A DNA stretch of 64,000 nucleotides, from NCBI GenBank assembly GCA_905178155.1, contig CAJINV010000006.1, positions 1,737,876-1,801,875 of the forward strand, read 5' to 3'. Within the stretch, counting starts at the first letter, position 1. Each line of letters starts with the position of its first letter. Source of the DNA: Amoebophrya sp. A120. Lineage: Eukaryota > Protista > Dinoflagellata. The notes under the pieces are model-generated. The model did no database searches. It saw nothing but the letters and a program-made list of their open reading frames with translations, and was not told the DNA's origin. Below, one piece after another: positions 35,401 to 60,361 of this stretch. A program made the translations under genes and the position numbers.

Positions 35401-37075
35401 ATCGTACTTACTAGTATAAATGGCTATGGCATGACAAATTTCCTGAGCATGAGAGAGAAAATGCATGACTGCGATTACTTACTTCTACTAGTACGATACT
35501 TTTGCACGGGATAATCCAGTCGTGAAGCCCAAGCCGCTGATTGACGTGAAAGCCGAGGCCGCACGGATGTTGACACCGCTTCCGCCTGCATCGTTCTCCC
35601 GCGGGTTCTTTAAAAGTGGCTCGAAAAGTGCTCGATCCGTATCCGCGAAAAGCTCGAAGAAAACCAGTTCTGCTGCTGGCAAGGCGAAGAGTTGTGTAGG
35701 ACCAGCAGCAGCCACAACGACTGCACCGCAAAACGCTTCGAAGCAGAGCGTGCCGGAAGAATTGATCGGCACGGGGCACGTGGCGGAGTGGAATGAGAAA
35801 ACCCAGGCGTTCCAGTTTTCCGAAGTGGTGGTATCGACGTACCCAACAACAACAACAACATCTCCGCCTGTTCTTGCGCCCAAAACCGACACGACGACTT
35901 CTAATGTTGACAATAGTACCACGACGACGACAGCAGCAGGGAAGCAAGAAATAAGAAAGCCAGCAGCTGGTGTAAAAAAAGCCGTGTCAAATACAACCTC
36001 TATTAGTAGACCTGTAGTATTTGCCCCGGTCCCGCGGGCTTTTTCCCGAAGATCCCGCATCATGAAGAGTCCACCGAGTAGCATGATCTCCCGGGCAGAC
36101 GTAAAGGTGGTACCGGCGGCGCTGCTCCAGAAAGAGCAGGAAATCATCATGAAAGAGCAGACAGCAGACCGCGATGGAGAGGAACTACAGCTTCTGCAGC
36201 AGGGAGAGGACTTTTTGGGGGAGAAACTTGTCATGCACGACGCCGAACAGGATGGTGGAGATGGACCACCGAGATCAAATGGCGCAACAAATATTTTTAA
36301 GCGGACTACTACTTCGAGCCGACATTTCGTTTCGCTCGACACTGATACTGCGCAGATTGAAGATCTCGATTTGTTGGACAAAGTGCACATCTCCGAGCAC
36401 CGGCCGTCAAAGACGTTGTTAGACAGGTTGGAGATAACGGTCTCGAAAAGTAGTGGAGGAAAAATCGAGGACAATGGGACGTCTCGACCGACGGGCGGCA
36501 ATGAAGGAAAAGCCAAAAGAAATGGAATTACTGTTGCGAGTAGTTCTCAGACCACAAAGAAGCCACAGAACAAGCCCGAAGAGCTGCATCAAGTAGATGC
36601 AGCAAGAAATATGAAGAAACTCGCCCGAAGAATTATATCAACCACTCCATCGCCCTACCACAGCATGGTAGTCCAGGCACACATATGAAATGCAAAAGCA
36701 TCGTACTCGTATAAATGCATGACAAATTCCCTCAGCATGAGAAAAAAAAATTGTAATGCGGATTTACCTTGAGAAAAAAATTTGTAATGCATGACTGCAG
36801 TACAAGTGCGATACTTTTGCACAGGATACCACAACGCGAACCAGCTTTGCTATGTGGAAACCCTGCAGAAGCTCCCGTCTGGGAAATGTCTGACGCCGGC
36901 GAAAGACAAGTTGGAACAAAAACTGCTGGAAAAAAAGAGAAACGAACACTTTCCAAAAGGCCGGTCGAGCTTTGGGTCGTTGCTGACCTTTCCTAGGTGG
37001 AATTGTCCGGAAGTGGATGACTCGTTGAAAAAGTTGTTACGGAGTCTGAAAACGAAAACAGCGATGAATCAATGA
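32447..37075 (+). CDS. Gene 6: large low-complexity (S/T/P/A-rich, probably disordered) protein with 5 family A introners
   Basis: ATG 32447 (MASPTPTTPAARP). ORFs 33089-34270, 34308-35414, 35522-36688 and 36791-37075 join in frame after removing elements at 32672, 32986, ~34159, ~35385 and ~36683 (TSDs GTCCC, GAGCG, GATTC, ATCCA, ACACA/CCACA). Confidence 0.85.
32672..33130. mobile_element. Two adjacent family A introners (most abundant family, about 140-190 bp; TIR TAT-N5-GCAAAAGTATCGTACTCGTA) in opposite orientations
   Basis: 32672-32816 starts TATCCTGTGCAAAAG; 32986-33130 ends CTTTTGCACAGGATA. Both are 145 bp with perfect TSDs. Confidence 0.93.
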
Positions 37076-38200
37076 GGATGGATTATATATTTCTTCCGTG
37101 GATACAAGTCAAGCCTTCTCAGTAACAGTAAGTATCTCGGTTTAATATTTTCATCACCCTCGTCATCGTCAGTCCTTTATTTCCAGCATCGAGTTGTTGT
37201 ATCATAGTGCCAGCAACTAGCTCGGGGTCCTCATTCGGACTTTGTAGATTCGGTTTCGTTTCAGAGAAGTTTCTAAGTTGATGATGTCTACGCAATTGGA
37301 CAACAAGTGTAGTTTATTTGCTCTCCTACTCCTGTGTTTAAATCTATTGTTATCATTTCGATGTGATCGCGCCATCGTAGTACGATGGCAGTGACGTCTT
37401 TTGATGTCGTTCCTATTTCATTTTGAAAATCCCTTTCTCGACGAAAAACTGCTTGCAACACCGCGATAGCGTGATTTGTGTCTCGACCGTTCTTGACTTC
37501 GCTGGTGCCGTGAAAGAAAGCCAATCAATCGCATTTTCTATTTTGAAGCCCAACAAGCCCATAAAAATTGTTGAGGCCGTGTTCTTCGCAGCTGGACTAT
37601 AGAAATCCGTAGGTTATTAAAAGTGTCATCACTCGCGTATGTCGTATGAATGCGTGGACGTCGTTGTTGAGGAATTGTTGTGCAAAAGTGCTGGAAAAAA
37701 TGCTCACGTTGACGGCAATCAAATGTGAAATTCAATGTGGAGAAGTTTCAGTGAGAGAGCATATCGCAAAGCGGCTAGACTCGCTCTCGCACTCGATCTC
37801 GAAGAGCACCAGAGATTTTCAAACGAGACTGCAGAAGATGCGCTACAACAACTGTGCGGTAATTTTGTATGAGGAAACCGTATGCTAAGTCGTGCTGGAC
37901 GGAGCTGCAGGCACCTCATCAACCACTCAGACTAGTCGAGAAACCCACCAGTGCCTCTTCCAACAAGATGGGGCCGGGCGCAGAAGTGGAATTATGTAAT
38001 CTTTTCGTAGAGACATTATAGAGCTTTGTTTGATTGAAAATGACGTCGATGTTGTCGATGCGAGCCTTATATATAATTAAGATCACCGGCAGCGAAAGCT
38101 CCTGCAAGGTGATGAAGATGACCACATCTTCAAAGTGACAGTTTGAATCCGGACGACGAGAGGTCTACTTCCAGCAGCCAACATTTGCAACATCTTCAAG

Positions 38201-41200
38201 ATGCCCGGAGCTGTGTCGCTGGAGCACCTTCACTTGTATGAACTGCAAAAGTATCGTACTCGTATAAATGCATTACAAATTTCCTCAGCATCAGAGAAAA
38301 AATTTGTAATGCGGATATACCTCAAGTAGAAAAAGTAAAAGATTTGTAATGCATGACTGCAATGCGAGTATTGTGCGATGCTTTTGCACAGGATAACTTA
38401 ACCTCCGTGTCAACGTCGTTCACCGCTTTTCATCAGGACGATGTGTATCGTGAGAAAAAAGTGTTTCACTGTGAACCTGTGATGCAGAAAATGGAACGCA
38501 GAACTTAACTATTTGTCTTGCTACACCTGCAAGGCATGGGATTTTCCAGCGCGTTTTCCCTTGGGAAGTGCGCATGACAATAAATTTTCAATGTTAATAT
38601 GTGTAACAAACTTGTGATGCAGATCTACTTGCAAAATCACCACAGTTGTGAAACAGTTCTTTCTTGCGATAATGTGGACAGCAGCACCACTGTCTACCAC
38701 GTCCAGGAAGAATTTAACTTCCAACTCCAGGCGGGAAAGAAGCCGACGCCAGGAAAACATGATCAGAACAACACCGGTCGTAGTTCCTTCAGGTGTTATG
38801 CCTGGGACGGTCGTTAGCATACAGAAGGGTGAATTTGCAGTGAATTTGTATTGCATGACTTGCATTTACTTCAAAAGAGAAGTGCGCTGCGTAAAGGGCT
38901 GGGCACGAGCCCAAGCAGCTCACGCAGCGTGAAGGGCTGCAGCTCGGTGCCAGGTGGCACTTGCAGCACCGAAAGAAGTAGTGGTAGGTCTTGCTGGGGC
39001 CCGCCGGACTGTGTAGTGCATATGTAGCCAAAGAGTGTGGGTCGTGGGGCTCTTGTTCATCTGCGCGTCTGCCTCAGAAGTTCCTCTCCGGAATGGTCGG
39101 GAGGGAGGGCGACGCCTGAACACAGGGGCACTAGTTCAACACGTGCGCTCTCACGAGTTGTGGTTGTGGCTTGGAATTGGATATCTGGGAGTAGCCTCGG
39201 GTGGAAAGGAAGGCACGACTCGGCTACGGGCACTAGCTTGCTTGGCCTGGTGTGCTCGGCTTACAACTCCCCAGGCGTGTTTTTGCCCCCGGAGCAAGTC
39301 TTTTTCGAGGTGGCTCTCAGGTCAAGAATTCTCTTGGTGAATTTTGAGGCTTTTTGTTTTTGCGACACTTTTTTGAAGCCCCCAAACCCGGAGTTTCTCA
39401 CGCGCTAGCGAATTTTGAAAAGGAGCCGGAGGCCAAAATTCACCGGCGCCCTTTTCAAAATTCACCCCAAAATTCACCGGGCGCCCATTTTCGACCGTGA
39501 TAAGCAAACTTTAGCGCAGAAAAGTGCTCAAAAAAGTGCACAGATAGGCCATGAGAAGGAACGCAAAGGGGGAAAAAGCGTAGTCCTCTGCTGCCCTAAG
39601 CCCGCCTGTATTCTGCTGAAAATGCCGCAAGATTTCACGCGCCTGCCGGGAAAATGCGTCAAAGCTCTCGGCCGGGTCCTTTCGTCCTTGCCTGCCTTCT
39701 TGCTTAGTTGTATGCGCTTCGCAGCCTTTATTTCTGGCGTCTTTGCCGCGGCTGCTGCAGTGCTCTTCTGCGAGAACCCGGAGGCGCAAAAACCTGCCCA
39801 AAGAACGGCGCCCGGGCCATGTCCTCTGGCTGCCCACTGCACAAAAGCCCGCGGCTGCTGTGCGGTGCAGGGCCTTCTACTTCCCAGAACAGGGCCAAGA
39901 GGGACAATGTCCCGGCGGGCTCAACTGCAATTTGGCATGCAAAATTCACTACAAATTCACCACTTCTCATGCTAACGGGTGACAACATGATCAGAACAAC
40001 ACCGGTCGTAGTTCCTTCCGGTGGCTCACGACAAACTTCGCGACAAGTGGCGGTCGCAGCAGCGGTGGTGGTGGCTCGTCTTCATCAACGTCTTCTTCTG
40101 GTTCCTACCACAAAGATCATAACCCGGTGCAGCACCACTTGAAAATGATCAAACACACCTCTTTCGCGATTCACCAGGAGAGTTTGCAAGTCCTCCTGCA
40201 CAGCGTAAGAACTGCAACTGGGAAAGCAAAAAATGCCAAAACACGACTTGGCAAGACCTCCTTCAACCCACTGTGGCCCGGAGCGACTTTCAAGGATCAA
40301 CAACTCTACTCCGCCGGACAGCGCAACCGGTCGGAAACCTCCACGGGCCTACTGGCCTATGAACAGCAAAAGTATCGTACTCGTATAAATGCATTACAGA
40401 TTTCCTCAGCATGAGAGAGAAAATTTGTAATGCTGATTTACTTTCAGAAAAAGATTTGTAATGCATGACTGCAAAAATACGAGTACGATGCTTTTGCACT
40501 TCATATCGCCGGCATGAACGCCTGGCCCGCGGAGAAGGACGATGCCAACCGGATTACCAGCACGGCGAAGCACTTGGTTATGAACTGCAAAAGTATCGTA
40601 CTAAGATGAATTGCAATACAAATTGGCTCAGCATTACAAATTGAATTTGTAATGCGGATTTATCTTAACAACATAGATTTGTAATGCATAACTGCAATTA
40701 GGACGAGTATGTACAATACTGTTGCAGTGCATATTGGAGCCCGGGCCGGAATCCTGTGAGTACGTGAAAGCGACCTCGAACGGCCTAGACACCACGGCGG
40801 CCGGGTCCCCCGAAGGGACCGCGAATTTAACAAACGACTTTGTGAACAAGAACGGCCTAAACACCCTGCGCGCCGAGGCGATCAAATTTGAAATGAAAAA
40901 GTCGGGCTCGAGCTGCACCCCCGGAAACTACCGGTGTTGCACGAACCTGAAGATGCAATCCCGGGCGGACCCGAATTTGTTCCGCGAGGGGCAGTATGTC
41001 AATTGCAAAAGAGTATCGTACTCGTATAAATGCATTACAAACTTCCTCAGCATGAGAAACGCTGATTAGCCTTAAGAAAAAGATTTGTGATGCATGATTG
41101 CAATACGAGCAATTTTTGCGATGCATAGTCCGTACGTCTTCATCCGGTCGGACTCCGGGGAAGAGGACGGCGACGCCTTGATGGCTAGGGTGAAGCGATT

Positions 41201-44200
41201 CGAGCCGGTGACTATGCAATACAAATTTCCCGCACATGCACAAGATGCATCACAAATTTCACCAATCAGGAGCGGAAAACTTGTCATGCTATTAACTAGG
41301 ATCGAAGCCAAGTTTTGTCATGTAGAGACCTCCGCGTTTGTACGTCCACGTCGTGTACGGGAAATTATTTCCTGTGGATAGTGACACAGGGGTGGGTGGT
41401 GCAGCCGTTGCGGCCAAGAAGAGGTTCTCTCTTATGCATTGCAAAAATGTCTTGGTCTGGAAAAGTGGAACTTGTGTTGCATGTCTTGCATCCCTGAAGA
41501 ATCTGTATTGCACAGCCAGCAAGAAAGGCGGTACTTTTTCGTCTTGTAAAAACGCAGTTTGTCATGCGTGCTACGCATCAGACGGCGTCAAGTATACTTG
41601 TCGTGCTGGGCTGCACTTGAGAGCGCCAGTCTTATCCATACTTTAGCATCACAAATTTCCAGACCCAGACATATTTGCATTTGATATCTCTCTCCGAAAG
41701 ACGATCTGCAGACGGTGAATTCCGTGCAAGTAAGGTGTCAGCTATGAGAGTGCACAACCCCTCCTCCGCCTCATTTGTATAGCATGAACGGCAATACAAC
41801 CACAAGCAAGAATGCCGGTTTCGCATGACAAATTTGAACTGGATCATTGTAGTGCTACTTGGGCTGCCATAACTTGTCATGCAAACAGTGCCAAGAGGCA
41901 AGGCCACCTAAATTAGGTATTTTGCATGACAAATGAGGGGGAGGGGGAGTTGTGCACTCTGATAGCAGCGGTCTGCAGAAAATCCGGAGGGGAAGAAGGA
42001 TTTGGTCGTATCCTGTGCAAAAGTACTTATCGTACTCGTACTACTTGCAAATATGCATGACAAGTGTTTTTCTCACGGTAAAACAGCATTACAAATTGTC
42101 TTGCTGAGCGAATTTCTGATGCAGTCGTACGAAGATACTTTTGCAATTCATAGGTCGATGCCGGCGACTACAAGAGCTACTGGAGCGGCATGGAGCCCAT
42201 CGCGGTGGAATCAAAAATCCCGGAACGGTGTCGCGGGGACGAAAAGACCTACAAGTGCGAGTTATTCGACAAGGAGTGCCGGGTCATGCCGGGAACCCCA
42301 AGCGAGGCTGAAACGCTGAACGCCCATGGATATGGATTGCAAAAATGTCTGGGTCTGGAAAAGTGCAAGGTTTGTCATGCTAGGCTAGCAAGACTCTTAA
42401 GTCTGTCATGCGCGTTACCGAAAGGCCTTATTTTTCTGTGATGCAAAAACGCAGTTTGTCATGCAGAATAGGCAACACTTAGCAGCTCAGAAACTTGTCA
42501 TGCTGAGCCATCATTTGTGGCCTCCACATTCTAAGTCTTGCAGCATTACAAGTTTCCAGACCCAGACATTTTTGCATTTGATAATGGAAGCGACGACGAA
42601 CCGGAAAGACCGCCGCCGTTACCGCCAACCATGGACCAAAACAGCCACATCGAGATGAAAGACGAAAACTTCGTGTCCGAAAACACCCCGGGGATCACGT
42701 GTAAACAACGGCTAGAGGCTTGTCAGTACAACTACAGCTTCCACGCTTCTAACCAGAACGAGACGGGGTGGACGCCGCCTTTGGGCTACCAGCCCGGGAT
42801 GAACCGGGAAAAACCACTTGGCCGGGCGCACGATTTACGACGAAGAAAAATTCCCCCTCCCCGTATCATTATCAAAACGGAAATCTGTGATGCAGATTTG
42901 TGGTCACAAATCAGCTTTGTCATGCTAGAAGGATAGTAGAGATGCGGGCTGTAGTTCTGGATGGCGTGGGAAGGCCTTGCGTCGTCAGCATGACAGGAGC
43001 CAGCTGGAAGTGGGAAACAGCATGACAAATTGCCTGCACCAAACGAGGCCACGACTTCTGCGGCTCTTGGCCTTCTAGCAATGCAAGGCGATTTGTGTAC
43101 TCAAATACAGCATCACAAATTTCGTCTTCGATATGGGGAGGGGGGATTTTTCCTTTTGATACGATGCGAAAAGCAGGAAGCTGCTGCTCGGGGAAGCGAT
43201 TGACGAGTACATGTTTCACTACCCGTATCTTACAAAAAAACTGTCTCAGTCTCAAACCTTTGCAGACTCAGCAACACAAATTTGCGAAGCAAGAAACAAA
43301 AAATCTCTGATGCTTCAAACAACAAGGGAAAACACATTCATACATAGGAAAGATCGATCTTTCTTGCATCTCAAGCATGACAAAAAACAGTCTCAAGGAA
43401 GTTGCGCATTACAAGTTCTTGAGACTGAGACACTTTTTTCTCACGATAACCCGGACCCGAAGGGCTTTTTGGGCAACCAGCTGGTCGAACGGTTAAAAAT
43501 CGGGCAGATGCCCGGGGAAGGCCTGGTGGCGCACTATCCAAGGAAAAAACTGTGTAGGTATAATTTTCTTGGAGGAATAGCATCACAAGTTTGCTCTGCA
43601 TGACACAGAAATAAACCTGTCATGCGTAGCTAGTACGTGAAAACACGACGTACGAAAAGAGCCTCTGATGCACGTCCAGCATGACAAGTGTAACAGTTTT
43701 GGATTTTCTGCGTCACAGACCTACGCTCACATAGTTTTTTTCTTGCATACGCACGTGTCCGGGTTTAACAACGAAACCGGGAAGTACAAAATCGTCCCGG
43801 TCGGGAATCCAGCGCTCGACGCGGAAAACGAAAATTCCGTGATCGGCAAGGAAATATGTCAGTGCACGACTCCCCCTCCCCCCTCTTTTGTCACGCAAAA
43901 GTCCAAATCCAAGTGCTTTCCGGTGGCACTGTTTGCATGACAGATTCAGGAAGCGGCCCAAACAGAACTACACTATCACTAGGCGCATGAGCTTGTCATG
44001 CACACGCTCCACGTGTGCTAGTATTTGTATTGCTGTTCATGCAATTATAGTACAAACGAGGGGGAGGGGGGGGGTTGTGCGGTCTCATAGGAAATCGAAG
44101 CCGCACGGAACGACCCGGATACCGGCGAAAAATTGGAGCCGGTCGATGGCTATCAACTGCAAATATCGATCTGGGTCTGGAAACTTGTGATGCATGTCAC

Positions 44201-47200
44201 TGAATAGTAACCACACTGTAATGCACCGCCAAGCATGACAGCTTTTCTCGGGGCTTTGTGTTGCGTATTTCGGATGAGAAACATCGTTTTTGCATGACAG
44301 ACAAGAGGAGGTGTTCCGATGGCCCGACGCAATACAGAGTTCTTCAGAGTCACATGCCAAACTAGCATGAGAAATCTCGCAATCTTCCGGAGGACCCAGA
44401 TCGCTATTTGCGATGCATAACGGCGTGTACGTTCGGTGTCACCGACAGGATTTCGGCTCCTTCTGGGACTGGGCCGACAACAACATCCCGGATGTATGCA
44501 CTGCAAAAGTATCGTACTCGTATTGCAGTCATGCATTACAAATCTTTTTATTAAGGTAAATCAGCATTACTACAAAATTTATTTCCCATGCTGAGGAAAT
44601 TTGTAATGCATTTATACGAGTGCGATACGTTTGCAATGCATAGGATGACAAGGGCGACTATACCGCAATCTACGGAGCTAACAACCAGAAAGCAACGAAT
44701 TCTATGCTCTGCAAAAGTATCGTACTAGTACAAACTGCATTACGATAACGATTACAAATTTGGTCAGCATGAGAAATGGAATTTGTCAAGCTGTTTAACC
44801 TTGGGATGGAGATTTTTGATGCATGAGTGCGATAATTACTACGAGTACGATACTTTTGCACAGGATAAATTCCTGGTGGCCGGCCCCCATCCGGAAGAGC
44901 GACGACTTGCCGGCCGAGTGCAACTACCGGCGGGGCAACGACTACTACCCGATGTGGATGGAGTTCAGTAACGTTCCCTATGAGCTCCGCAACCACCATA
45001 TTACAATGAAAAATGCCCCCTCCCCATATCAATACGGAAATCTGTGATGCAGATTTGTGGTCACAAATCAGCTTTGTGATGCTAGAAGGCAAAAGATGCG
45101 GACTGTAGTGCTGTCTAGCGTGGGAGTAAACCTATGCAGCTCCAGGATGACAAAAGGCAACTAGACAAGCGGGAAACAGCATGACAGATTGCCTGCGATT
45201 TAGGCCGCAGCTTCGTCTCTTGGCCTTCTAGCAATACAAGTTGATTTGTGTACTCAAATGCAGCATCACAAATTCGCGCATCTTCCGTTTCCGATATGGG
45301 GTGGGGGCTTTTTCCACTTTGATACGCCACACCATCTGGAAGGGCAAGGCCCGCGACGCGGGAGGCAATCCTATTCTGAGGAAAAATCCCCCCTCCCCAT
45401 ATCGAAAAGGTGTGCTTCCGAAAATTTGTGTTGCTGATTTGACGTCACAAATCACGTCTGTCTTGCAACAAGACAAGCGCAGAGGCTTCCGCACCATTAT
45501 GGAAGCGATTTGGCATGCTGTTGCGCCTAGAGGGCACCCTTTTGCAATGCTAAGCAGCTAGACCTATACGCCCCTACCTAGGCCGAGGATCTGGCTGCGA
45601 TGCCTTACTGCAAGACAAATCCGATTTGTGTACCCAAATCCTGCATCACAGATTTCCATTTCGATATGGGGAGGGGAGATTTTTCCTTTTGATAAATCCG
45701 GGGCATTGGTTTCCCGAAGAGCGGCCGGGAGACCAGAATGGCTTGGGTACGGGGAAGTGGAAACTGCCCATGCCCGGTATCAAAGTGAAAAAAGCCCCTA
45801 AGAACCCATACTCAAAAGACAATTTGTGTTGCTGGATTTGTGTACACAAATGAACTTTGTATTGCAGCCAGAGCTTGTGCTTGTCGGCATATTCTAAGCC
45901 CATTTCATCTTGGGCACGCATCCGGCTAGCAGGTGCGCATGAGAAACAAGTCTGACAGAGCAGGCGAAAACGCATGACAGACTGGATGCACATCAATGCG
46001 CCACATGGGTGCCGTTTGCATTGTACAACGCAAGACAAAGCTGATTTGTGGTCACAAATCAGCATCACAAATTTTCTTTTCGATATGGGGAGGGAAATAA
46101 ATTTTTCCTTACGATACCCGGGGTGGACATGCCGAACTGGGTCTGGAAGACGGACAAACAGCGGAAAGACATGAACCTGAACTGGAAAAAACTTCTCGTC
46201 GACGCGGCCCTGGTGCGCGTGCGACACTGGTATCATAAGGACCGGGAGTATGTCCGCGACCAGCACGTGTCCGCGGAGTATGCATTGCAAAAGTATCGTA
46301 CTCGTATAAATGCATCACAAATTTCATCAGCATGAGAAATAAAATTTGTAATGCTGATTTGCCTTAACAAGATGATTTGTGATGCATGACCGCAATACGA
46401 GCACGATACTTTTGCACAGGATACGGAGAAATACGAAGGAAAAATTTTGGGCACGATGGACCGAAAATTATGCAAGAAAAAAACATTGTTACGTGTAACT
46501 TTGTGATGCGCATCAACATGCATATGCAAGATGATTGCATCTGTCATGCTGGGCATGCGTTGCAAGGTCCATTCAGGAGCGTTTTCACGTACCATCTGCG
46601 CATGACAGGCTTTTGCTGTAATGCAAGACAGATTTGTCATGCTGTTCCCCCAAGATCAGAGTTACACCTACAATCTTTTTTTCTTGGATAGAAATTACCG
46701 CTGGAACAGTGGGGAGACACGGAAATGGTATAGTGAGTAGGATCATTTTTATTTGTAGTAAGTTGAAGTTGATACTAGCTCGTAGTTACTTCCTGTTCCG
46801 GTTGCTGTTCTATTGGTGTGAGGCAGATTTAAGAGGTTGCTTTCTTGTTCGTCATAAGAAAGTCAACTACTACCAAGCATGGCACCTCATTGTAGCATGC
46901 CGGTACTAGTAGTACCGCTTAGGAGAAAAAACATCAACATATATCATAAACGTCTCTCCCGCTCTACACCTACAGTATGACCTCCAACACTTCCGACCGG
47001 GGCCGCAACCCGAACTCACCATTCCGGCCCGCAACCTGCGCGCCATCGAGGGCGGACTGCGGATAACCTGCGGCGACAACAGCGAATGGGGAGATCGGGA
47101 GGGCATCGTGACCTCGTGGCGGCAGGTGCCGGAAATTTGCAAGAAGAACTTCAAGTGGAAGGTGCAGCTGTGGGGCAATCTGGACGACGATACTTCGGTT

Positions 47201-50200
47201 GCGGAAAAGCCGTATCAACCGCAACTACGTCTGGGTCTGGAAGCTTGTGATGCTCAAGTATGCATGAGTCAGGCGCTTTCAAGTGCAGCCAAGCATGACA
47301 AGTTTAGTTGACCACGCCGTCTGACGCGTAGCGCGCATGACAAACCGCGTTCTACTTCTTGCATCACAAAAAAATGGTGCCTTTGCTGGCTATGCAACAC
47401 AGATTTGTTTTCAGGAATGCAAGACATGCAACACAGGTTCCACTTTTATTCCAGAGCCAGACATATTTGCGATGCATAAGCCGGCAAACTGGAATCGGGA
47501 GCAGAAGGAGTACCGAAAATTCATCGAGTCTGTCCTCGCGAATCAGGCTATGGCCTGGCCGGCACCGCAGTCCAACATGCTCCAAGTCGACGCGATGTCG
47601 GAGTTATGAGAGTGCACAACCCCCCCCCCTCCCCCTCATTAATATTTACATTGCTTGACTTCCGGGTTCTGGTCCCGCCTACCCCCCGGCGACAGGTGAC
47701 CTTGACAGGTGACCTTGACAGGTGACCTTGACAGGTGACCTTGACAGGTGACCTTGACAGGTGATCGTGACAGGTTACCGTGACAGGTGACCTTGACAGG
47801 TGACCTGGACAGGTGACCTGGACAGGTGGCCGCGACAGGCGAAGCGTGAGGATAAAGCAAAGGCGAGGCCAGCGCCTGGGCGCAAATATTTATTTTTCAC
47901 GCCAAATGCCGCTCTTGACGTGAAAAATAAATTAAAAGCGCCAAAAAAAAAAAACGACGCAAAAATTGAAAAAGATTAAAGCTGTAACACAAACTGCCTC
48001 CATAAGCAAAGAAGTCTTTGCGTTCGCGTTGCCATGCAAAAATAAAAAAGCGGCTATCTCTGCAATGCACGGCCAGGAAACAGCTGCTCTCTTTGCTCTG
48101 TGGAACCGGAAAGGCGTTGCGCTTCAATATTAGAGAACTTTTTTGCAGAAGCCACACAGAGATATTCACTTTGCTTCTATTTTTGTTTTTTCTTGCAAAA
48201 TGCAGGGCGCCTAATTCGCCCTTTTTCCACTAGCGCTTCGCGCACTGAGCCACTACGCGCGCGCCTGGTGTGAGGCGAGGGGCGGACGCTGTCCGCCCCG
48301 ATGCCGAACACCCTTCCCCCACTAGCGCCACTAGGGACGAGCACAAGGCCCCAGCGTGGGGACCCTGTCCCCACGCTCGGGTGGGCCTTGTTTGTCATGC
48401 AAAATACTTAGCTTACGCCTTGCCTCTTGGCACTGTCTGCATGACAAGTTCTGGCAGCTGCCCAAATAGCACTACACTCCTGTCCACATTTGTCATGCGA
48501 AACCTGCATTCTTGCTGACGCTTGTATTGCTGTTCATACGATACTAAAAATGAGAAGAACGGGGAGTTGTGCACTTTCATACGAGTTCGAGTGCTCGAAG
48601 AAATGCTGTGGAAATCGGTTCTGCAAGTCGTTTTCCTATTTGAAAAACAAAACGAGGAAGAACAACTGCTTTATCAAGTGTAAAAATGTCTGGGTCTGCA
48701 AGAGTGGAAGATTTGCGATGCAGGTTTTCCATGACTCATGAGGTCTGTAATGCATGGTCTAGCATCACAGATTTTGAGAGGGCTTCCTCGTGCCTGTTCC
48801 GCATGAGAAATGCCCTCTCGCCGTGGCAAAAACTGGACTCCTCTCGCCGGTCATGCATTACAGGTTTTTTTTTGAATCCGAAGACAGCATTACAAGTTGC
48901 AATCTTCCAGACCCAGACATTTTTACATTTGATACGCTTGCTTTTCAAGCAACTCGACGCGGCGGTCATTTCCACGAAAGCTATGCATTGCAAAAGTATC
49001 GTACTAGTAGAAATGGCATGACAAATTTGAATAGCATGACAAATGAAATTTGTAATGCAGATTTACCTTAGGAAGCAGATTTGTATTGCATGATTGCAAC
49101 TGGTACGAGTACGATACTTTTGCAAAGCATAAAAGCGACGGAGCTGCGAAACACCCCCTGCGGTAAGGAGGTCTCGCACATGCAGTTTTGCCGGCAGACC
49201 GAAAAATACTGCAGCTACTTTGCCGACCCGAACGTCTCGCCGATTTTTTCGAAAGTGGATGAAGCCTCCCCGTTGACCACGCTAAGCGGAGATATGAAAT
49301 GCAAAAATACCTGGGTCTGGAGACTTGTGATGCTGGGTGGCGTATCATGAGGAGGCCACAAGTGCTGGCGCAGCATGACAAGTTTCTGAGCTTCTAGGTG
49401 TTGCCCACTCTGCATGACAGACTGCGTTTCTGCACGACAGAAAAATGGGTAGGTGGCTACCGTTTGAAGTTTATAAACGAATGGGACGCCCTGCCCTTAG
49501 CCTTCCAACATGACAGAAAAATGGGGCTGCTCTTGGGTAACGTGCATGACAGATTTATTAAGAGTCATGCCAGACAAGCATGACAAACGTGCACTCTTCC
49601 AGACCCAGACATTTTTGCATTTGATAGGAGAGAACGTGAAACAAGCGGCCGCGCCGAAGTGTCAGCAGTGTCCCGATTTCAAGAACGGAGAAACCTGTGC
49701 GTCCATATGAGAGTGCACAACTCCCCCTCCCCCTCATTTGTATGGCATGATCAGCATTACAACAACCAGCGCACGTAGGGCCTGCGCATGACAAGTTCAA
49801 GCTCACGCGCGTACTAGTGCAGTACTGTTTGGGCTTCCCGAAAAATCTGTCATGCAAACAGTGCCACAATCTGGCGCTTGGATTTGGTCACTTGCATTAC
49901 AAATGAGGGGGAGGGGGAGTTGGGCAATCTCATACTCCATGGTGCAGAAGCAGAAGGAGGCCGGGATGTTCGACGTGAATATTTCGAAGAGGATACTGTG
50001 AGGAAAACCGTTCCCACCTTAGAGCCAAGATGGAGATTTTGCAACACAAACCTAAAGAGTTTTGCGAGCCACGCATGACAAGTTCAAGTTGGAGGCTGTA
50101 TTGTAGTGCAGTTTAGCTGGTGCAACGGAATCTTCCGCATAACAAATCCACCTCCTTATAATCCTGTCTACAGCATTACAAGTTTCATCAAAACACGATT

Positions 50201-53200
50201 GGAAGGGCCTCTCTACTTGGGGATGCGCATCACAAATGCTCCTCTGCTTGCCAATCTGCATGACAACTACTCTGGTGTGGGAACATTTTTCCTCAGGATG
50301 GAGGAACGGGCAGAGCGCCGACATCGACGAGCAAGCCCGGGACATGCTGATCTCCGAGTCCAGTGCGAACTGCAACATCAATTGCCAGTTCGATCCGCGG
50401 CCGTGGAAAACGTGCAAACTCGACACGGTGGATATCCAGAGGAAATTTCCCGTACACGTACAAATCAGGTCTCTGCATGACAAAGCTTGTCTTCCATCCT
50501 ACTTAGCATGACAAGTGGCATGCTCTAAGTTGGCAAAATTTGTGATGCATTTTGTACATGTGCGGGACATTTCCTGTGGATAGTGGACGCTACCTACGAA
50601 AAAGACCCACTACCCGTCGTGTACGCGAGCGTCCGCCTCCGGCCCAGGATCAGAGAGTTATCAAATGTAAAAATGTCTGGAAGAATCCGAATTTTGTTAT
50701 GCTGTTTTTGCATGACACAGAATGTCTGTCATGGAAGCCCTAGCATCACAGATTTTTAGAGGCCTTCCTGATGCCTATTCCGCACGACAAATGCCCTCCA
50801 CGCGTAGCACAAACCGGACTCCTCTTGCTGGTCATGCAATACAGAATTTTTGTAGAGTCCAAAAATAGCATCACAAGTTTCAACCTTCCAGATCCAGACA
50901 CTTTTGCAATCCATAAGAGTGGGTGCCAGACGATTGCTGTGGCGGTGAGTGGGTGTGGAACTGGAATCAGCACGGCCTATGCATTGCAAAAGCATCGTAC
51001 TAGTATAAATTGCAATACAAGTTTCCTTAGCATGAGAAATAGAATATGTCATGCGGATTTGCCTAAATAAAAAGATTTGGAATGCAAGACTTGCATTTAT
51101 ACGAGTGCGATGCTTTTGCACAGCATACGGGCCCTGGACCGACTACCAACCCATCCGGGACATCTCGGACTTTGCGAAGTCGCGGTTCAAATTATCAAAA
51201 GGAAAAATCCCCCGTCGCCATGTCGAAACGAAGTCTGTAATGCTGGATTTGCGTACACAAATCACATTGGTCTTGCTGGAGAAGATGACTGTAAGTCCAT
51301 ATCAAGTCGGAGTAGAGCGGTCATGGCCTAGGCACTTAGCATGAGAGACGTCTGCGCTGTAGGCCCAACAGCATCACAGACCGCCTGCATAATGCGGCGG
51401 CTGTCTGTGGAATTGCCTTCTTGCAAGATGACTGAGGCGATTTGTGGTCGCGAATCAGCATTGCAAATTTTCTGCTCCGTAGCTTTTTGATATGGGGAGG
51501 CGGGGTCTTTCCTCGCGATACAAATTTCAGGGCAGCGAAGCGGAGCAGTCTATCACTATTAAAGGAAAGGATAGAGACACCAAGATGCGGCTGGGCCGGT
51601 CCAAACCCACGGAGGGGTTTGGTTCTTCCTGGGAAAAGGTCCTATCCCAGAAAAAAAGATTGTAGCTGTAACTTTTTTGGCTGATTAGCATTACAAACCT
51701 GTCTGGCATGACAGCAGAAACCTGTCATGCGCAGATAGCATGTCAAAACGCGCTTGAATGAGAATGAACCTTGCAATGCATGTCCAGCATGACAGACGCA
51801 ATCATCTTACGTGTTGCGCATCACAAACTTACACTAACAATGTTTTTTTCCTGCATAGGTGCCCGTAAGCGACGAATACCCGGACGGGTGGCGGTACCGC
51901 GGGAAGGTCGGGGAGATGTTTATCAAAGTGAAAAATCCCCCCTCCCCATATCGAAAAGGATCGCCTCAGAGAATTTGTGATGCTGATTTGTGACCACAAA
52001 TCATGTCTGTCTTGCAAGAGAGCGACGGCATGGGCTCCGCCCTATTATGCAGGCGGTTTGTAATGCTGTTGGTCCTACACCATAGACGTGCCCCATGCTA
52101 AGCGCCTAGGCCAGAACCTCTCTCCATTGGCGTGGTATGGGCCTGCAGTCCTCTACTGCAAGACCAATCTGATTTGTGTACGCAAATCCAGCATTAGAAA
52201 TCTCGTTTTGATATGGGATGGGGGCTTTTTTCACTTTGATAATGTTGTTTCCGCGGCCCTCCAAAAATATGGCGGTAGACCTGCAGTTTATGGTCAAGAA
52301 CTCCGACGGCCACAAGATATCCTGTGCAAAAGTATCGTACTCGTATTGCAATCATGCATTGCAAATATTTTTCCTAAGGTAAACCAGCATTACAAATTTT
52401 ATTTCTCATGCTGAGGAAATCGAAATTTGTAATGCATTTATACAAGTACGATGCTTTTGCACTGCATACAAGACCACCGTGAAAAATATCGTGGTGCCGG
52501 GGCGCAACGAGAAGCTGCAGCAGAGGTTTTTGCCGTTTTTCCCCACCGACTACTTCAAAAAAGTCCAAGACATCTATGACAGTGCACAACTCCAACCCCC
52601 CCCCCTCATTTGTATGGCATGAACAGCAATATAACCACCAGCACACATGGAGCCTGTGCATGACAAATTCATGTGCCTAATGTAGTACTATTTGGGCTTC
52701 CGGAATTTGTCATGCAAACAGTGCCACAAGGCAGCGAGAGCGACTGGATTTGGGATTTTGCGTGACAAATGAGGGGGAGGGGGAGTTGTGCACTGTCATA
52801 ATATCGGCGGGGTGCGGAAAGTCATCCAGAAAGCGTGGCGGATGAAGAACGAGATCAACCCGGTATCCTATGTAAAAACGTCCCCACAACTTCCGCCCCA
52901 GAGTTGTCATGCAGATTTGCAATGACAGGAACATTTGTGATGCGCATACCCATGATAGTCATCTCATTGCCATTTCCAATTGTGTTTTGAAATTTGTAAT
53001 GTTGTAAACAGGATGAGTAGATAGCTTTGTGATGCGGCTGTCCTTGCTAACCTGAACTACACCACGGACTGTAGCGCGTCATGCGTGACTCCCAAAACTT
53101 CTGGATTTGTGTTGCGCACTGCCCAAAAATCAGTGACTCCGGGACGAAGGTGGGGACCACGTTTTTCCACAGGATACCCGGACCGTGGAATTTTTCGGAA

Positions 53201-56200
53201 CGCCATTGTGGAATTCGTGAACCGGAAGAAGATACGCATGGCAAAAGCATCGCAATCATAGTGGGAACAATTGCATTACAAATTTGCGCAGCATGAAGAA
53301 TTGAATTTCTCATGCGGATTCGCGCACAAAGATAGATCTGTCATGCGTGCTTGCAATTGATTCCACCTGTCCTGAATGCGATGCTTTTGCACAGGATAGA
53401 AGGCCAAGGTGCTCTACTGGGACCCGGTCCACGAGGAGGCCGTCTTGCAGGACTTGGCTACCTATGGATTGCAAATACAGAATTTGTGTTGCTGAAGCGC
53501 GCATCGCAGAAGGTGTCCGCTTGTACGGCATGATAACAGCATGAGAAATTTTGCGAGGCTTAGGTTTGCAGATTCACTCCTCGTGATAAAACGCATGACA
53601 AAGAACTTCACAGCATGACAAAAAAAACTAGCGACTCGTATTCACGCATCACAGATCTTGTAGTCCTTCAAAGCTCGCATGACAAAGACCGTCGATATTT
53701 GCAACGCATACTACCTCGCGCGTGTTCTACCAGCAGCGACCGGAGGTGCACTTTCACGCCCCGAGGGCTAAGGACAACTACACCTGCCACGAGGGGATCC
53801 GCGTGCAGACGCGGTTATGCACTGCAAATATGTCTGGGTTTGGAAGGATGCAGCTTGTCATGCTAAATTTGGATCATGCAAAAATTTGTGTTGCATGATT
53901 ACCAAAAACTGTCCATTTTTGACCAAGTTGGGAGTGAGTTTCTCTTTCTCATGCAGGATAGGCATGATACAGATCATCTCACAGAATCTGTCATGCTAGA
54001 TCCTGCATTGCAGACCTCATGTGTCATGTGGAACCTGCATGAGAAGTCTTGTATTCTTCCACACCCAGACATATTTGTACTTGATACCGGTTGCACGAGA
54101 TCAAAACCGTGACCGCGCCGTCGCAGGAGGAGTGCGCGGTGCAGTGTGTATCCTGTGCAAAAGTACCGTACTCGTATAAGGAATGCCAGACTAGCATGAC
54201 AAATCTGGTTTCTTAGGTAATTTAGCATGACAAATTATTAATTATTAATTTTTCATGCTGAGCTAATTTGTAATGCAGTTTATACTAGTACGATGCTTTA
54301 GCTTTTGCAGTGCATAGTGTGACAAGCAGACCAACTGCGAGAGTTTTGACTTTTTCAAAGGCGAGGAAAAGTGGCGAACGTCGAAGCAAATGAACTGTCA
54401 TCTCTACTCGAAGAACGGGCACACGAAAGAGCTGCTCTTGCGGGACAGGTATCAAGTGCAAACGTGCAGCCTGGGTCTGGAGGAAAACTGTGATGCCGGT
54501 TTGTTAATGGTAGGCGCACTGCAACTTCTATACGCGGCGAAGCATGACAAAATTTTCAAAATCCTATCACACCCAGATCCATGTTTGCAATGCATAACAG
54601 GCAGGGGTTGCGGAAGGAAAAAATCCATTTTGGAAGACGCAAGGCGGACATTAACATGGACTTGGAAAATATCAAACAAAAAAAGTTCGTCACGATCATT
54701 CATGCGCATTTTTGCAATACAAAACTTTCTGTCATGCGTAAAAATGCATCACAGCCAAGCTTCGCGAGGGATCTCCCTAGCGTTTGTGCAAGACAAGGAC
54801 AAGCTTTGATGCTAAAAGTTTTTGTAATGCAAAACCTGCAAGTTAGTGACATGACTGTGACAAACTTTTTTCTCTTCATAGAAAAGGTGCTGCCAAACTA
54901 CAAGCAGAGCAAGCACAGCAACGAGTATTCCCGGATGGGAATTTAGGCAAAGAAAAAACTGTTTCACTGTCAACTTGTAATGCAGAAAATGCATCTTAGA
55001 AGTGTTTGTCTTGCTACACATGCAAGACACTGGATTTTTAGCTGTGTTTTCCCATTGGAACCTCGCATGGCAAATTGTCTCTGTCATGCGGAACAAACTT
55101 GTGATGCGAAACTTGCAAAATCCTTACAGTGAAACACTTTTATCCTGTGATAGAATTCCGTTCCTCGAAGCACCTCTGAAGCCCGACAAAGAGCAGGAGA
55201 AGACTTTCATTTTCCAAATCCCGTGCGTATAAACTGCAAAGGTATCGTACTAGTATAAATTGCAATTATACAAATTAGCTCAGCAGTACAAATTGAATTT
55301 GTAATGCGGATTTCACTTAAGAAAAAGATTTGTAAATGCATAAAAGCAATTAGTACGAGTACGATACTTTTGCACTGGATAGTGCGAGGCGTGCATCAAC
55401 TCCTGGGCCCGACACGGCATGGCGGTCACGGAAACCAAGGATTTCAACCAGGATATCGCAAGGGAAAATCCCGCCTCCCCATATCGAAAAGGTATGTCTC
55501 AGAAAATTTGTAATGCTGATTTGTGACCACAGATCGTCTCTGTCTTGCAAGAACGCGGTCGGTTTGTAATGCTGTTTGCCCTACAGCCTAGACGTTTGCC
55601 ATGGTCAGCGACTAGCCCAAAACATCTCGTCTGCTCACTCTTACTATAGGCATGCAGTCCTCTCAAGCAAGACAAATCTGACTTGTGTACGCAAGTCCAG
55701 CATTGGAAGCCTCGTTTTGTTGATATGGGGAGGAGGGACTTTTCCTTTTGATACAAGACCTGGACCCCGACAGCGCCGGCGATTTTTCCAAAAGCGTCCA
55801 CATGGGCACCGGCGCCACCAGGGGACTGAACGGCGCGCGAGACCGGCTGTGGTGCAGAAACGGGAACGGTGCCTTGGTCAATAACCGATGCTCGGTGCAG
55901 GAGCTGGGGCACGCACGGCGGTATCGAATGCAAATGTATGTCTGCTGGGTCTGCTGGTGAAGACTGTTGCAACTTGTGATGTGCTACCTTTGGACTGTTC
56001 TATTAGAACAGTCCAAAGGTAATTTTTATCAAATAAAAATCTGTATCGCCTGAGCAGAAAGAAGAACAGTCCAGTTTTTGCTACGTGGACGACGAGGAGC
56101 ATTTCTCATGCCCGGATGGACATCAAGGCGGCTTCTTCAAAACGTCTGTGATGCTGGGGCCTACGTTACAGATCGATCATGCGTCATGCAAGATGTGCAT

Positions 56201-59200
56201 GGCAATAAACGTAAACCTTGTATCCTTCGTGCAGACGCAGATCCAGACACAATTTGCACTGCATAGGGGGAACCGGCAGGCAAAATGGTATACGAAGGGC
56301 ACGTATCAACTGCAAAAATGTCTGGGTCTGGAAACTTGTAATGCTGCGTTGGGAATAGTGAATGCTCTGTAATGCACAGGCAAGCATGCGAAATATCTGC
56401 GCACCTTTGTGTTGCGTTTTTCGCATGACAAACTGCGTTTTTGCATGACAGGCAAAAGGGTCTCTTCTTGGACACGCATCACAAACTTTTTGGTCATGCC
56501 AGACAAGCATGACAAGTCTCGCAATCTTCCAGACCCAGACATATTTGCAATCCATAGCACGTTGGATTACGAGGAACAGGACGAGAAGGGCCGCATGGTG
56601 AGAAAGGAAGCCATATCCCGTGTAAAAACATCCCCACCCCAGAGTCAAGATAAGTGGCCACATTATACCATAGTTATTTCCGTACTTCACCTACGTCATT
56701 CTCTCCTTTTTAACTTCAACAAAGTTCGAAACTTCTCTGTGCTTTAAATTTGGTCTTTTCCAGTACATAAAACACCCCAGAGTCAAGATGGCGACTTTTT
56801 GCTACACAAGTCAACAAGTTTAGGCTGTTCTGCATGACAGATTTGAGCTCGTAAGTAGGTAGTCCTGTTCAGCTAGTGTGTTCGTATTACAAATCGACAA
56901 CCCTATCCTGCTTGGAGCATGACAAACTCCCAGGTAATATTAGAAAACGCTCCAGCTCTGCATGGGGCTGCGCATGAGAAATGTTCTAGGCTCGCAGATT
57001 TGCATGACAAGTCTGGGGCGGGAGCGTTTTTGCGGAGCATAAACCAAAGTGATTGACAGAGTGCCAGATGAAGGCATGTACACCGAGCCCGCAGTTGAGG
57101 CGAAAGACGGGCGCCACATGTATCCACAGTACTTCTAAATCATTTCCCGTACTGCGCACACAGTGACAGCAACAGCTACAGCTGCGGTTTCTACTGCATC
57201 ACAAAACTTGCCTTCGATCCTAGAGTCAGCATGACAAGTCGTGTTACACTCTAGTACGTCATGGCGAACAAGTTTGTCATGCACTTTGCACATCGTGTAG
57301 TACAACGGGAAAATAAAGATAAATTTGTATTGCATAACATGGTACAGGACCACATTACGCCGTACAGGAAGTATCTTTGGGGCTACGGCCGTGTAGAGAT
57401 GGGTCTTAACGAGGACGCACCGGAGTACTGGCACCATTGCGACCGGAAAAAACCGCACACCGGAATCTACCCAGAGTAAACTTCCCGTACGCGTACAAAG
57501 CTGGTTTCTGCATGACAAACTTTTCTTCCAATTCTACTCAGCATGGCAAGTGACATGCTCCAACTTGGTAAAATTTGTCATGCATTTTGTACATGTACTA
57601 CAGGAAATTTGTATTGCATAGAATTATCAACAGGAACAGTAGCTCCGCTGTCATCAACAATTCCATGATGCAGGAAATTTGCCGACCCGCCTGGGAGCGG
57701 CCCGGTGTGGCGAACGGAGTCGATATGTGCCACTCACGGTGTGTGTTCGAGTTGCAGGGAAACGGGAAGGAGACATCCTTGGTGGATGGAAGCAAAAACG
57801 AGAAGCCGGGGGGTATCGACCAGGATATTTCCTGCCGCAAAATGTGCTTGGACCATGCGATTACGCCCTACAACCCACGGTGGGACGATTTGGACGAAAA
57901 CATGAAGGCGGTGCTGATGAAGGATCAGTACGTGGAGTCTCCGGAGGGAACGAACACGGGGAGGAACAGCAACCCCGGAGCCATCAAGCTCCGGCCGTAC
58001 CTGAACAAGAAGTGCAACGCCATCTACGACTTTTTCTGCAGAAAAGACGCTCCGGGGAGGTCCCACTGGGAGAAGGGGAACCCGCCACCGCACCCAAAAG
58101 ACAAGGACAAACCCCCGTCCAAGTGGCATCACGGGAGGTGGCCCTTCACGCACGACAGCTACGAGTGCATGGACCTCCACGACCCCATTCGCGACGAGCC
58201 GAACCCCATCGACCCCAGCTGCTGTGGCGGCTGGGCCGAGCCGTTCTCGAACAACCACGGGCGGTACAGCAGCTGGTCGCCGTTTCCGAAGATTTTCTGC
58301 AACCAGTTCTACCGCACCGATATGGCGTTCGGAAAACGATTTGGGCAGGAACTGGGCGCAATCGACAAGGAGCACGACCCGGTGGAGACGCCCAACGTGC
58401 CGGAGGGCGAGTTGAAAGCGGTCGACCCGGTGACCGGAGACACGACTACGTTCTCCGGCTTCAACAAGCATCGCCAGCGGGGGCACTGCGAGGTGCCGGA
58501 GCGTGGGAAGTATCATGAGGAAAAATCCCCCCTCCCAATAATCAGGCGGAGGTTTGTGTAGCATGATTTGTGATCACAAATCACATTGTCATGCTAGAAG
58601 GGAAGAGATGCGGAGTGTAGTGCTGGCTGGCGTGGGAATAAACCTTTGCGTCTTCAACATAACAAAAAACAACTAAAAGTGGGACACCGCATGACAAATT
58701 GCCCGCAAACGAGGCCGCGACTGTGTCTCTTGGCCTTCTAGCAAGACAAGTCGATCTGTGTACGCAGATCCAGCACCACAAATATCCTTTTCGACATGTT
58801 GGGGAGGGGGAATTTTTCCTCACAATAGAAAGCCGATGGATATCATCTACCCCTGGGAAGACCACCACGGGGATACGGTCGGGAAGCGAAATATGGATGT
58901 GTCAGGATCGAAATCGTCAAAGTTGAAATGATTTGCCATGCATAAAATGCAAGACATGAAGCACCTGTCTTGCCGGGATGGCAAGTGAGGCAGATTGTGA
59001 GCCTATTTAGGGTTTGGGATAGAGCTGCTAAAAGAGCATGACGAAAGCAGTCTTCTGTGCCCAAACAGCATGACAAATTGGATTCCGGTGCTCCGAAAAT
59101 TTGTCATGCGCCGCTTAAAAATTAGGCTTCCAACTGGTATCCATTTTATGCATGACAAATCATTTCAAGAACTTTGTCGCTTTCAAACCTGACGCTTCCA

Positions 59201-60361
59201 TACGAAACAAACGATACACCATGGACCCAGATATGAATCGCAAAAGCATCGTACAACTATTAGTATTTGCATTACAAATTAGCTCAGCATGGCAAATGGA
59301 ATTTGTCATGCTGTTTTACCTTGGGATGGAGATTTGTAATGCATAACTGCAAGAATTACTACGAGTGCGATACTTTTGCAGAGGATACCAGAGTCCTGTC
59401 TACAAATGGGGCATTCAGTGTTCAAGGAAATGGAGGACGCGTATTACGATTTCGCGAGGCTGCAGTCCGGGCACCAGGGGTCCGGCCGCATGTTCGCGTG
59501 GGACGCGGTAGATAAAAGGGCGTACCACGGAGGCATAAGAGATGTTCGCGGCATGCGGTGGCATGAAAACAATACGAAGGTGACCATGGAGCAGTGCCGC
59601 ATGCCGGTCGTCATGGTAACGAAGCACATGGGCGATCAGGAAGCTAGCTCCTTTGACGTGTCTCCCATGAAGCCTGCCTGCCGGTATGCGAAGAAAAAGC
59701 TGTTTCACGGTTTTTACACATTGTGTTGCAGGCATCGCAAGACAGACAAGTTCTGTCATGCCGAAGAAGATGCTCAGGAGCCTAGAGTTTCATACGTGTT
59801 TATTTCCCTACCGATTTTTGCATTGCAAGTTTTCTCTGTCATGCAAGGCAAATGCAAATTTGTGATGCTGAGTTGTTCATTACAGATGTGTAACCTCTGC
59901 AACACTTTTCTCCTTTGATAGCCGGGTGCACATCGCCAGTAAGGATTTCGAAGATAAGGACCCGAACGACACAGATACGTACTTGCAGCAGTCGGAAGCC
60001 CTGGGCGTATCAACTGCAAATATGTCTGGGTCTGGAAGGGGACAAGTTTGCCATGCACATTTTCCATGATCCACGATGTCTGTTATGTATGCCCTAGCAT
60101 CACAGATTTTGTGAGCGCTTATCGATGCGCACCCCGCATGAGAAATGCCCGATCCACGTAGCCAAATTTGGCTGCTCTTGCTGCTCATGCAATACAGATT
60201 TTTTTAGCATCCACATGCAGCATCACAAGTTGCACTGTTCCAGACCCAGACATTTTTGCAATGCATAGCGCGCCCTTCACGACGAGACAAACAACGGAAC
60301 CGAGGGTGTGGAGGGCATCCCAGAGGACGGGGCGGACCTACCGGAAGGAGTCTCGGTCTGA
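38201..60361 (+). CDS. Gene 7: very large Cys/Trp-rich protein with at least two PAN/apple-like domains; about 58 introners and one canonical intron; start uncertain
   Basis: Frame traced by hand without a stop from ATG 38201 to TGA 60359-60361; GT-AG intron 46728-46975. The spliced motifs ECSKKCCGNRFCKSFSYLKNKTRKNNCLLFK and EECAVQCDKQTNCESFDFFKGEEKWRTSKQMNCHLYSK match the PAN pattern C-x3-C-x5-C-x-SF-x-Y/F..C-x-L. No signal peptide seen at the provisional start. Confidence 0.8.
38797..39977. mobile_element. Long (1.18 kb) introner-like TIR element with a truncated right end
   Basis: Starts TATGCCTGGG; 38812-38857 is an imperfect inverted repeat of 39935-39977; TSD GGTGT/GGTGA; internal AAAATTCACC repeats at 39435-39480; no credible ORF. 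Confidence 0.75.
46728..46975 (+). other. Canonical GT-AG intron
   Basis: GTATAG..CCTACAG, phase 0, joins WGDTEM to YDLQHFRPG. Confidence 0.8.
47641..48390. mobile_element. 750-bp insert nested in a family D introner (47605-48581); Helentron/HINE-like architecture
   Basis: Interrupts the family D TIR in its TTT run (CCCCCTCATT|..|TTTGTCATGC). It carries a 13-bp tandem array and ends in a long hairpin at 48343-48391. Confidence 0.7.
47691..47839. repeat. Tandem array, about 11 copies of GACAGGTGACCTT
   Basis: Directly visible; each unit contains the palindrome AGGT-G-ACCT. Confidence 0.95.
49706..49934. mobile_element. Introner family D representative (about 210-245 bp; TIR TATGAGAGTGCACAACTCCCCCTCCCCCTCATTTGT)
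   Basis: TSD GTCCA/CTCCA. Other copies at 9052-9277, ~9908, ~13164, 14486, ~41743, ~43856 and ~52576. Confidence 0.92.
50433..50582. mobile_element. Introner family I representative (TIR TATCCASAGGAAATKTCCCG)
   Basis: TSD GTGGA; related copies at ~41214, 57121 and ~57468. Confidence 0.85.

Follow-up and report, generated by a model that had tools for sequence, protein, structure and literature searches.

Introners of the dinoflagellate Amoebophrya sp. A120 number tens of thousands per genome and, according to the text and legends of their 2021 description (PMC7789003), start with TAT followed by a less-conserved spacer and a run of A, end in terminal inverted repeats (TIRs), are bordered by direct repeats of 3–5 nt (5 bp in the legend of Fig. 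S19), have non-canonical borders and occur many to a gene in co-oriented genes. That description gives the borders as "variable/unknown", the splice position and mechanism having been left open because the direct repeats hide the cut. The present study concerns a 64,000-nt stretch of the A120 genome (contig CAJINV010000006.1, positions 1,737,876 to 1,801,875; hereafter the window) with 124 curated TAT..ATA hairpin introners carrying 5-nt target site duplications (TSDs), in seven plus-strand genes. In the window the border sits at a constant position whether or not the repeats match: the intron is N-TAT...ATA-NNNN, its 5' cut falling 1 nt and its 3' cut 4 nt beyond the stem (the 4+1 register, four left-copy TSD bases and one right-copy base remaining in the exon).

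Other described systems share parts of this design. As far as the accessible text of PMC12501133 describes them, the nonconventional introns of Euglena are likewise non-GT-AG, with paired ends, cuts made at set spacers beyond the paired motif and a proposed origin from miniature inverted-repeat transposable elements (MITEs); a Euglena-like stem joining the intron ends is present here as predicted pairing, but in place of the Euglena signature N3CDG / CH'GN5-6|R there is N-TAY / ATA-N4, together with a TSD of exactly 5 bp and a 5' end resembling a donor. The introners of Fritillaria borealis (10.1101/2025.08.15.670264; PMC11282704) are, in the parts of these reports that were available, MITE-derived and abundant, with TIRs, TSDs and non-GT/AG borders; those borders are AG-AC/AG-AT-type dinucleotides that correspond to the terminal repeats, whereas here they derive largely from the target site. 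Introners of Symbiodinium, Polarella and Aureococcus (10.1101/2020.10.14.339549; PMC9860276) are described as recruiting splice sites from the TSD at a fixed position, some of them bidirectionally; they need G(H)/AG in the TSD, which limits their targets, whereas the elements of the window accept any TSD. Finally, introns of Yarrowia, Trichomonas and Giardia place the acceptor a few fixed bases from an adenosine, as outlined in PMC2483917, but retain ACTAAC and AG, neither of which is found here, where a branch role for the A at intron position -7 is a candidate.

No statement of a fixed register was found in the open full-text literature, to which the comparison was confined (subscription papers fall outside it), including the accessible parts of PMC12130899, PMC9860276, PMC11282704, PMC12787238, 10.1101/2024.09.05.611473 and 10.1101/2020.10.14.339549, nor in the text, Table S4 rows and legends of PMC7789003 (the images of Figs 3, S19 and S23 fall outside this scope). 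The elements are already known, and the fixed 4+1 border is the new part.

A fixed register independent of repeat identity

Splicing was read from the contigs of two samples of one study (runs X1 and X4), taken as RNA since they lack GT-AG introns; DNA contigs (X5) cross the exon-element borders without difference. Joints were placed leftmost and their shared letters reported, so that each TSD mismatch bounds the cut position. There is RNA evidence for 26 junctions (14 as joints, 4 by two adjoining piece ends and 8 by a single end whose partner is inferred), and 13 of the 40 mismatched-TSD junctions of the window are readable; over 20400-40399 the X1 results rest on 15 of 35 joints and 8 of 190 pieces. 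A raw-read run (X8) placed 134 reads, 99% of them continuing unlike the window.

The initial annotation, which dealt with the range 38792..48939 (24 of the 124 introners), had proposed that mismatched TSDs reveal which copy stays in the mRNA, and at 13 junctions they do. The spliced contigs carry the left copy at TSD positions 1-4 in 13 of 13 readable bases (6/6 at position 1, 3/3 at position 2, 1/1 at position 3 and 3/3 at position 4) and the right copy at position 5 in 7 of 7 (20485, 26856, 38237, 38797, 40579, 42836 and 57468). The cut intervals allowed by the 26 junctions share a single solution, four left bases, for which the chance is 0.0012 under uniform crossover and about 0.007 if any register is allowed. 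Register predictions had been fixed beforehand for 12 junctions; six are among the joints and pieces listed and all six agree, the other six (21381, 21686, 22626, 22977, 23802 and 31184) lying outside them. The fixed offset regardless of sequence that the initial annotation had put forward is borne out, but its intron TAT..ATA-NNNNN is off by one base: right-copy bases in cDNA, which it had named as contradicting a 5' cut flush with the stem, are what position 5 carries. Crossover points tracking homology, the other contrary outcome it had foreseen, were looked for and none occurs among the 26 junctions.

The plus-strand host gene at 38201..60361 contains 58 introners and one GT-AG intron and yields a 2147-aa open reading frame (ORF) with PAN-like repeats, its homolog P0001 carrying the PAN domain PF00024. 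Element removal in this gene reproduces contig X1 at 14 of 14 coordinate anchors (5489 nt over 38000-57900), and the canonical intron at 46728..46975 (plus strand), which starts with GTAT, is absent from the same contig as the introners (piece start 46975 and a length check). Right position 5 is retained, always on the plus strand, at 38236..38399 (TSD ACTTG/ACTTA; joint 38231|38396 with four shared letters, the left G being covered by X5), 40578..40737 (TTGGT/TTGGA; piece start 40734 with 0 other letters in X1 and X4), 42835..43165 (an intron starting T-TAC, CGATT/CGATG; piece end 42829 in X1 and X4) and 57467..57624 (GAATC/GAATT; piece start 57621 in X1 and X4). The left T at 42835 is confirmed by the X5 DNA contig 42560-42898, and since X5 carries the discarded left base at both 38236 and 42835, the right-base calls there are not assembly errors. 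Left bases are retained at position 2 of 40357..40509 (plus strand, TGGCC/TCGCC; piece end 40354 in X1 and X4, and a loose end in the X1 comparison over 20400-40399) and at positions 2 and 4 of 40994..41131 (plus strand, GGCAG/GTCCG; piece end 40993 in X1 and X4), whose two-position mismatch at 40995-41127 is as first described and fits the 4+1 register.

Two further plus-strand junctions of this gene are read at the protein level. At 53232..53402 (GAAGA/GAAGG) right position 5 would give Ala1320, the residue that P0001 has at 53233 (alignment KKAKVL). At 48671..48938 (TGCTT/CGCTT) the left copy was expected to supply a conserved PAN cysteine; translation of left position 1 indeed gives Cys953, which aligns with the PAN cysteine of P0001 (4 of 2000 shuffles as high), an outcome that the 4+1 register and a flush cut predict alike and that does not discriminate between them. 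ORF openness does not choose the register either, ORF lengths being equal under all registers tested.

The joint of the 1.2-kb intron at 38796..39996 (plus strand) alone fixes the register exactly. Its flanks, GGTGT and AGAAC, agree at 1 of 5 positions, without TSD identity, and the joint 38795|39997 has 0 shared letters, with piece start 39997 in both X1 and X4; because of this, repeat identity is not needed. The cut lies 4 nt past an ATC (39990-39992) that is the right stem end symmetric to the inner stem, and the TCAG acceptor 2 nt upstream is not used in the joint seen. An earlier argument that the right copy GGTGA would create a stop here is void because GGTGA (39978-39982) is not the right copy, the joint lying 14 nt beyond the predicted 38796|39983. 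The right inverted repeat is missing its final 15 nt, and a duplicate of about 43 nt of the exon left of the element stands in their place (39984..40024, plus strand). A sister copy in metagenome locus L054 (2186-3367), also 1.2 kb, is 99.2% identical to 38797-40024 and has the same last base; in both copies the right repeat stops 15 nt short, and a short filler and a left-flank duplicate of 43-49 nt come next. So far as the two sequences can tell, the family seems to move with long, variable duplications. Its ORFs have no Pfam match.

The same register recurs in other plus-strand genes. In one of these, position 1 is left and position 5 right at 20484..20868 (TCCGG/CCCGC; joint 20480|20866); the same holds at 26855..27154 (TGTGT/CGTGA; joint 26851|27152), and positions 1-2 are left in a 2-kb intron ending ATG-CCTG at 24791..26833 (AATGT/CCTGT; joint 24788|26832). 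At 27687..27857 an introner reads GT..AG exactly under 4+1 (joint 27683|27855, recorded as "GT..AG (cut +3)"), and a third gene keeps the left base at position 1 of 36683..36832 (ACACA/CCACA; adjacent pieces 36679|36830). The GT-AG intron at 27204-27339 is absent from introner-free contigs.

The register tracks transcription and not element orientation, as judged from one opposite-orientation test. Copies of one family lie in either orientation (27:19), and its reversed copy at 28392..28548 (plus strand, TTTGC/TTTTC; joint 28391|28549) keeps left position 4 and still at least four left bases.

Some further features of the spliced regions were recorded. Within 24792-26855 there are three copies of a 26-nt exon together with the element end before it (~25020, 26130 and 26830). 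The contig uses the third copy, after ATG, and leaves out the other two, both of which come after an intact ATA end; the net exon unit is 21 nt, so that inclusion would preserve the frame. Micro-exons between introns at 22353-22366 (14 unique letters) and 30586-30597 (12) are kept in X1 contigs.

Element anatomy and intron ends

Elements were found by scanning for inverted repeats bordered by 5-nt repeats, followed by curation against gene models. The element start is TAT in 117 of 124, and A occupies element position 11 in 103 and position 12 in 110; the A120-type anatomy (an inverted repeat from TAT, about 7 variable nt, an A-run and 5-nt direct repeats) is present, and by this anatomy the elements match the A120 introners as PMC7789003 describes them. 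The TSD copies agree at 5/5 positions in 84 elements, 4/5 in 34, 3/5 in 5 and 1/5 in 1. Agreement of at least 4/5 in 118 of 124 compares with a mean of 3.7 and a maximum of 13 in 10,000 shuffled pairings, while outside the five TSD positions left/right identity is at background (21-32/124). The hallmarks of MITEs are present (TIRs, TSDs of fixed length, many copies and both orientations); for an autonomous transposase partner, sought within the window only, the 12 ORFs taken from spacers and long elements all gave 0 Pfam matches.

The initial annotation had also pointed to synonymous TSD mismatches. Their excess is real (21 of 44, with 38797 excluded, versus 23% expected; p=4e-4) and is as expected if selection filters exonic copies, but it says nothing on which copy is retained, and one of the examples offered, ATC/ATT at 57468, has the right copy in the mRNA. 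At TSD positions 1-2 the right (intronic) copy carries a pyrimidine and the left a purine in a ratio of 12:1.

An independent set was drawn from metagenome loci L001-L115, a second assembly rich in these introner families (118 pattern matches, with host genes on both strands). After removal of five overlapping loci it comprised 477 unique elements, 333 of them orientable and 313 with a TSD of at least 4/5; the finder recovers 101 of the 124 curated window elements with one extra, and the codon model that oriented the 313-element set is correct for 99% of window elements. In this set the right copy again favours pyrimidines (11:1); a tblastn search of the seven modelled proteins against the 115 metagenome loci gave no match, and hence no empty sites by which to polarise the TSD changes.

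Under the 4+1 register, intron position +2 is T and +3 is A in 124 of 124 window elements, and +4 is T in 117, C in 6 and G in 1. The register thus puts the element's TAY at +2..+4, like the GTAY of canonical donors here: canonical introns in the window begin GTA in 7 of 7, with T in 4, C in 2 and A in 1 at +4 (5 of the 7 boundaries being modelled, not RNA-read). The A at -7 is invariant in window elements and is retained even by degenerate ends (ACC, AAA and TAC/ATG) at 27899-28058, 10520-10832 and 49994-50300, the first of which is spliced out in X1. The two ends are asymmetrically constrained: in the window the 5' end has its variants at position 3 (7 vs 0) and the 3' end at positions 1-2 (6 vs 0; Fisher p=6e-4), and the asymmetry recurs in the 313 elements (5' variants 4, 1 and 8, 3' variants 9, 4 and 2; p=0.016). 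The suggestion that a staggered splice cut mirrors the integration cut is not supported, given this asymmetry and the register following transcription at 28393.

Borders read GT-AG in 2 of 124 elements, and 49 terminal dinucleotide combinations occur among the 124, drawn largely from the target site. Predicted mean pair probability is 0.61-0.67 for the terminal three pairs and 0.76-0.86 for the stem from element position 9. L5:R1 pairing, which would lengthen the stem, is not avoided (25 vs 30 expected, p=0.17), and the combination A+1/T-1 (0 of 37) is missing probably as a matter of TA depletion.

A few elements stand apart. Those at 8562-8695, 6236-6471, 15377-15683 and 18739-19002 lie within a canonical intron or 3' of stop codons, and three of the four have decayed ends or TSDs, which makes them a possible control for relaxed constraint. 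The canonical intron at 29770-30224 starts G-TAT like an element and has a diverged duplicate of the upstream exon after the element's ATA; judging by its sequence it is possibly an introner absorbed into a GT-AG intron. A 977-nt element (47605-48581) contains a 13-nt tandem repeat array at 47695-47835.

Splicing machinery and alternative explanations

The reading favoured here, with some reserve, is that the major spliceosome removes these introns and has no need of G+1 or AG. The element's TAT would be read as the +2..+4 TAY of the host GTAY donor motif, the terminal stem would bring the two intron ends together, and the acceptor would be placed by distance and not by AG, possibly 7 nt from the invariant A acting as branch nucleotide. 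This last step is the least certain, and the -7 A is put forward only tentatively as a branch candidate. All nine predominant A120 non-canonical motifs among the Table S4 rows of PMC7789003 have T at +2; fixed branch-to-acceptor distances are described for Yarrowia, Trichomonas and Giardia (PMC2483917, in part); and a U2-type spliceosome is reported, in the available text of 10.1101/2025.08.15.670264, as necessary for the removal of non-GT/AG introners in Fritillaria. A U1-less spliceosome without fixed terminal dinucleotides, taking N-TAY as donor, the stem-presented A of ATA (-7) as branch and an acceptor cut by distance, is possible but rather doubtful.

Several points weigh against the register or the mechanism proposed for it. 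Readable junctions come from three genes, all on the plus strand, and from one study's two contig runs; the RNA status of the X1 and X4 contigs is a guess, contigs drop minor isoforms, and for 5 of the 13 mismatched junctions the evidence is one piece end. In the 313-element set the asymmetry is clear in plus-strand genes and not significant in the minus-strand half (p=0.59), and exceptions to the end sequence occur (5 variants at +2/+3 and 2 at -7); moreover, detection needed 2/3 TAT/ATA matches, which inflates invariance, though not asymmetry. By U2-type criteria, T stands at +2 throughout but G at +1 is not enriched (28/124, with three mismatches toward G and three away). AG at -2/-1 is found in 18 of 124 window elements (versus 7.2%, p=0.0035), with a drift toward YAG of 10:1, but the excess is not replicated (32/313, against 18, 27 and 27 in other registers) and the drift is 11:11 in the 313 elements; AG enrichment and YAG drift were dropped as support after this failure. 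The A at -7 has no CTRAY branch context before it (T at -9 in 43/124) and is found in 1 of 7 canonical introns here. The spliceosomal chemistry, with its lariat and branch, is putative, and U1 small nuclear RNA was not found in A120 according to the text of PMC7789003. Counting 15+4 strictly from the inner stem would put the sister copy in L054 out of frame, by sequence, and a strict ruler measured from the inner stem is not established.

The same 4+1 register could instead be produced by a dedicated non-spliceosomal endonuclease and ligase measuring from the stem end, as proposed for Euglena or in the manner of tRNA-type splicing. The missing G+1 and AG requirements and the U1 not found would suit such an activity; both the outer three pairs and the stem beginning at position 9 are expected from folding predictions, Euglena employs a stem with fixed spacers (PMC12501133, as far as available), and the 38797 joint bypasses the TCAG at a point symmetric to the inner stem. 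A product using that bypassed AG would shift the frame, however, and decay could hide it, while the terminal 15 nt of 38797 are predicted barely to pair. At the 5' end the element agrees with the host donor TAY, and pairing is lost at +4 in 7 of 124 elements while the partner A is fixed, which argues that sequence, not pairing, is read there. Nearly all spliceosome proteins are reported present in A120 in the text of PMC7789003. A dedicated enzyme appears unlikely, though it is the most serious of the alternatives.

A hairpin with a short direct repeat is a classic substrate for reverse-transcriptase template switching. Both are present here and the library type is unrecorded, so artefactual joints at the direct repeats were considered; a single register at all 26 junctions, one joint with 0 shared letters, and the removal of 58 elements in one contig to give a 2147-aa ORF with a homolog make this highly improbable. 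Excision from DNA before transcription, by a transposase or in the manner of ciliate internal eliminated sequences, would account for the TIR and TSD anatomy and is helped by the guessed RNA status of X1 and X4. It is equally hard to credit, given that the same contigs lack the GT-AG introns at 46728-46975 and 27204-27339, that X5 contigs continue across the exon-element borders, and that a transcription-oriented 4+1 register is not expected from a two-fold DNA cut. The 5+0 geometry of the initial annotation, with a flush 5' cut and a 3' cut 5 nt outside mirroring integration, accounts for the left bases at positions 1-4 and leaves the ORFs open (an open frame results even from the wrong 38797 end), but the right-copy base at position 5 in all seven RNA cases, the homolog residue at 53233 and a joint at 38795|39997, not 38796|39983, leave it next to no credence.

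Implications for introner annotation and spread

The 4+1 register supplies exact intron borders for annotation. The cut would remove exactly one TSD length, whatever the TSD sequence: as 1+4 adds up to the 5 bp of the TSD and the element has inverted repeats at its ends, an exonic insertion in either orientation would splice out scarless. With offsets that together make one TSD length, and with symmetric ends, invasion of any exon position would be harmless.

For a major spliceosome reading TAY and placing the acceptor by distance, the mechanism is reduced to specific tests: a T+2/A+3 donor, A-7 as branch candidate and no AG. If removal is spliceosomal, these introners are an extreme case of a spliceosome operating without G+1 and AG, and if the U1-less distance-cut code is true, every TAT..ATA insertion with a 5-bp TSD would make a perfect intron, wherever it lands and whichever way it points.

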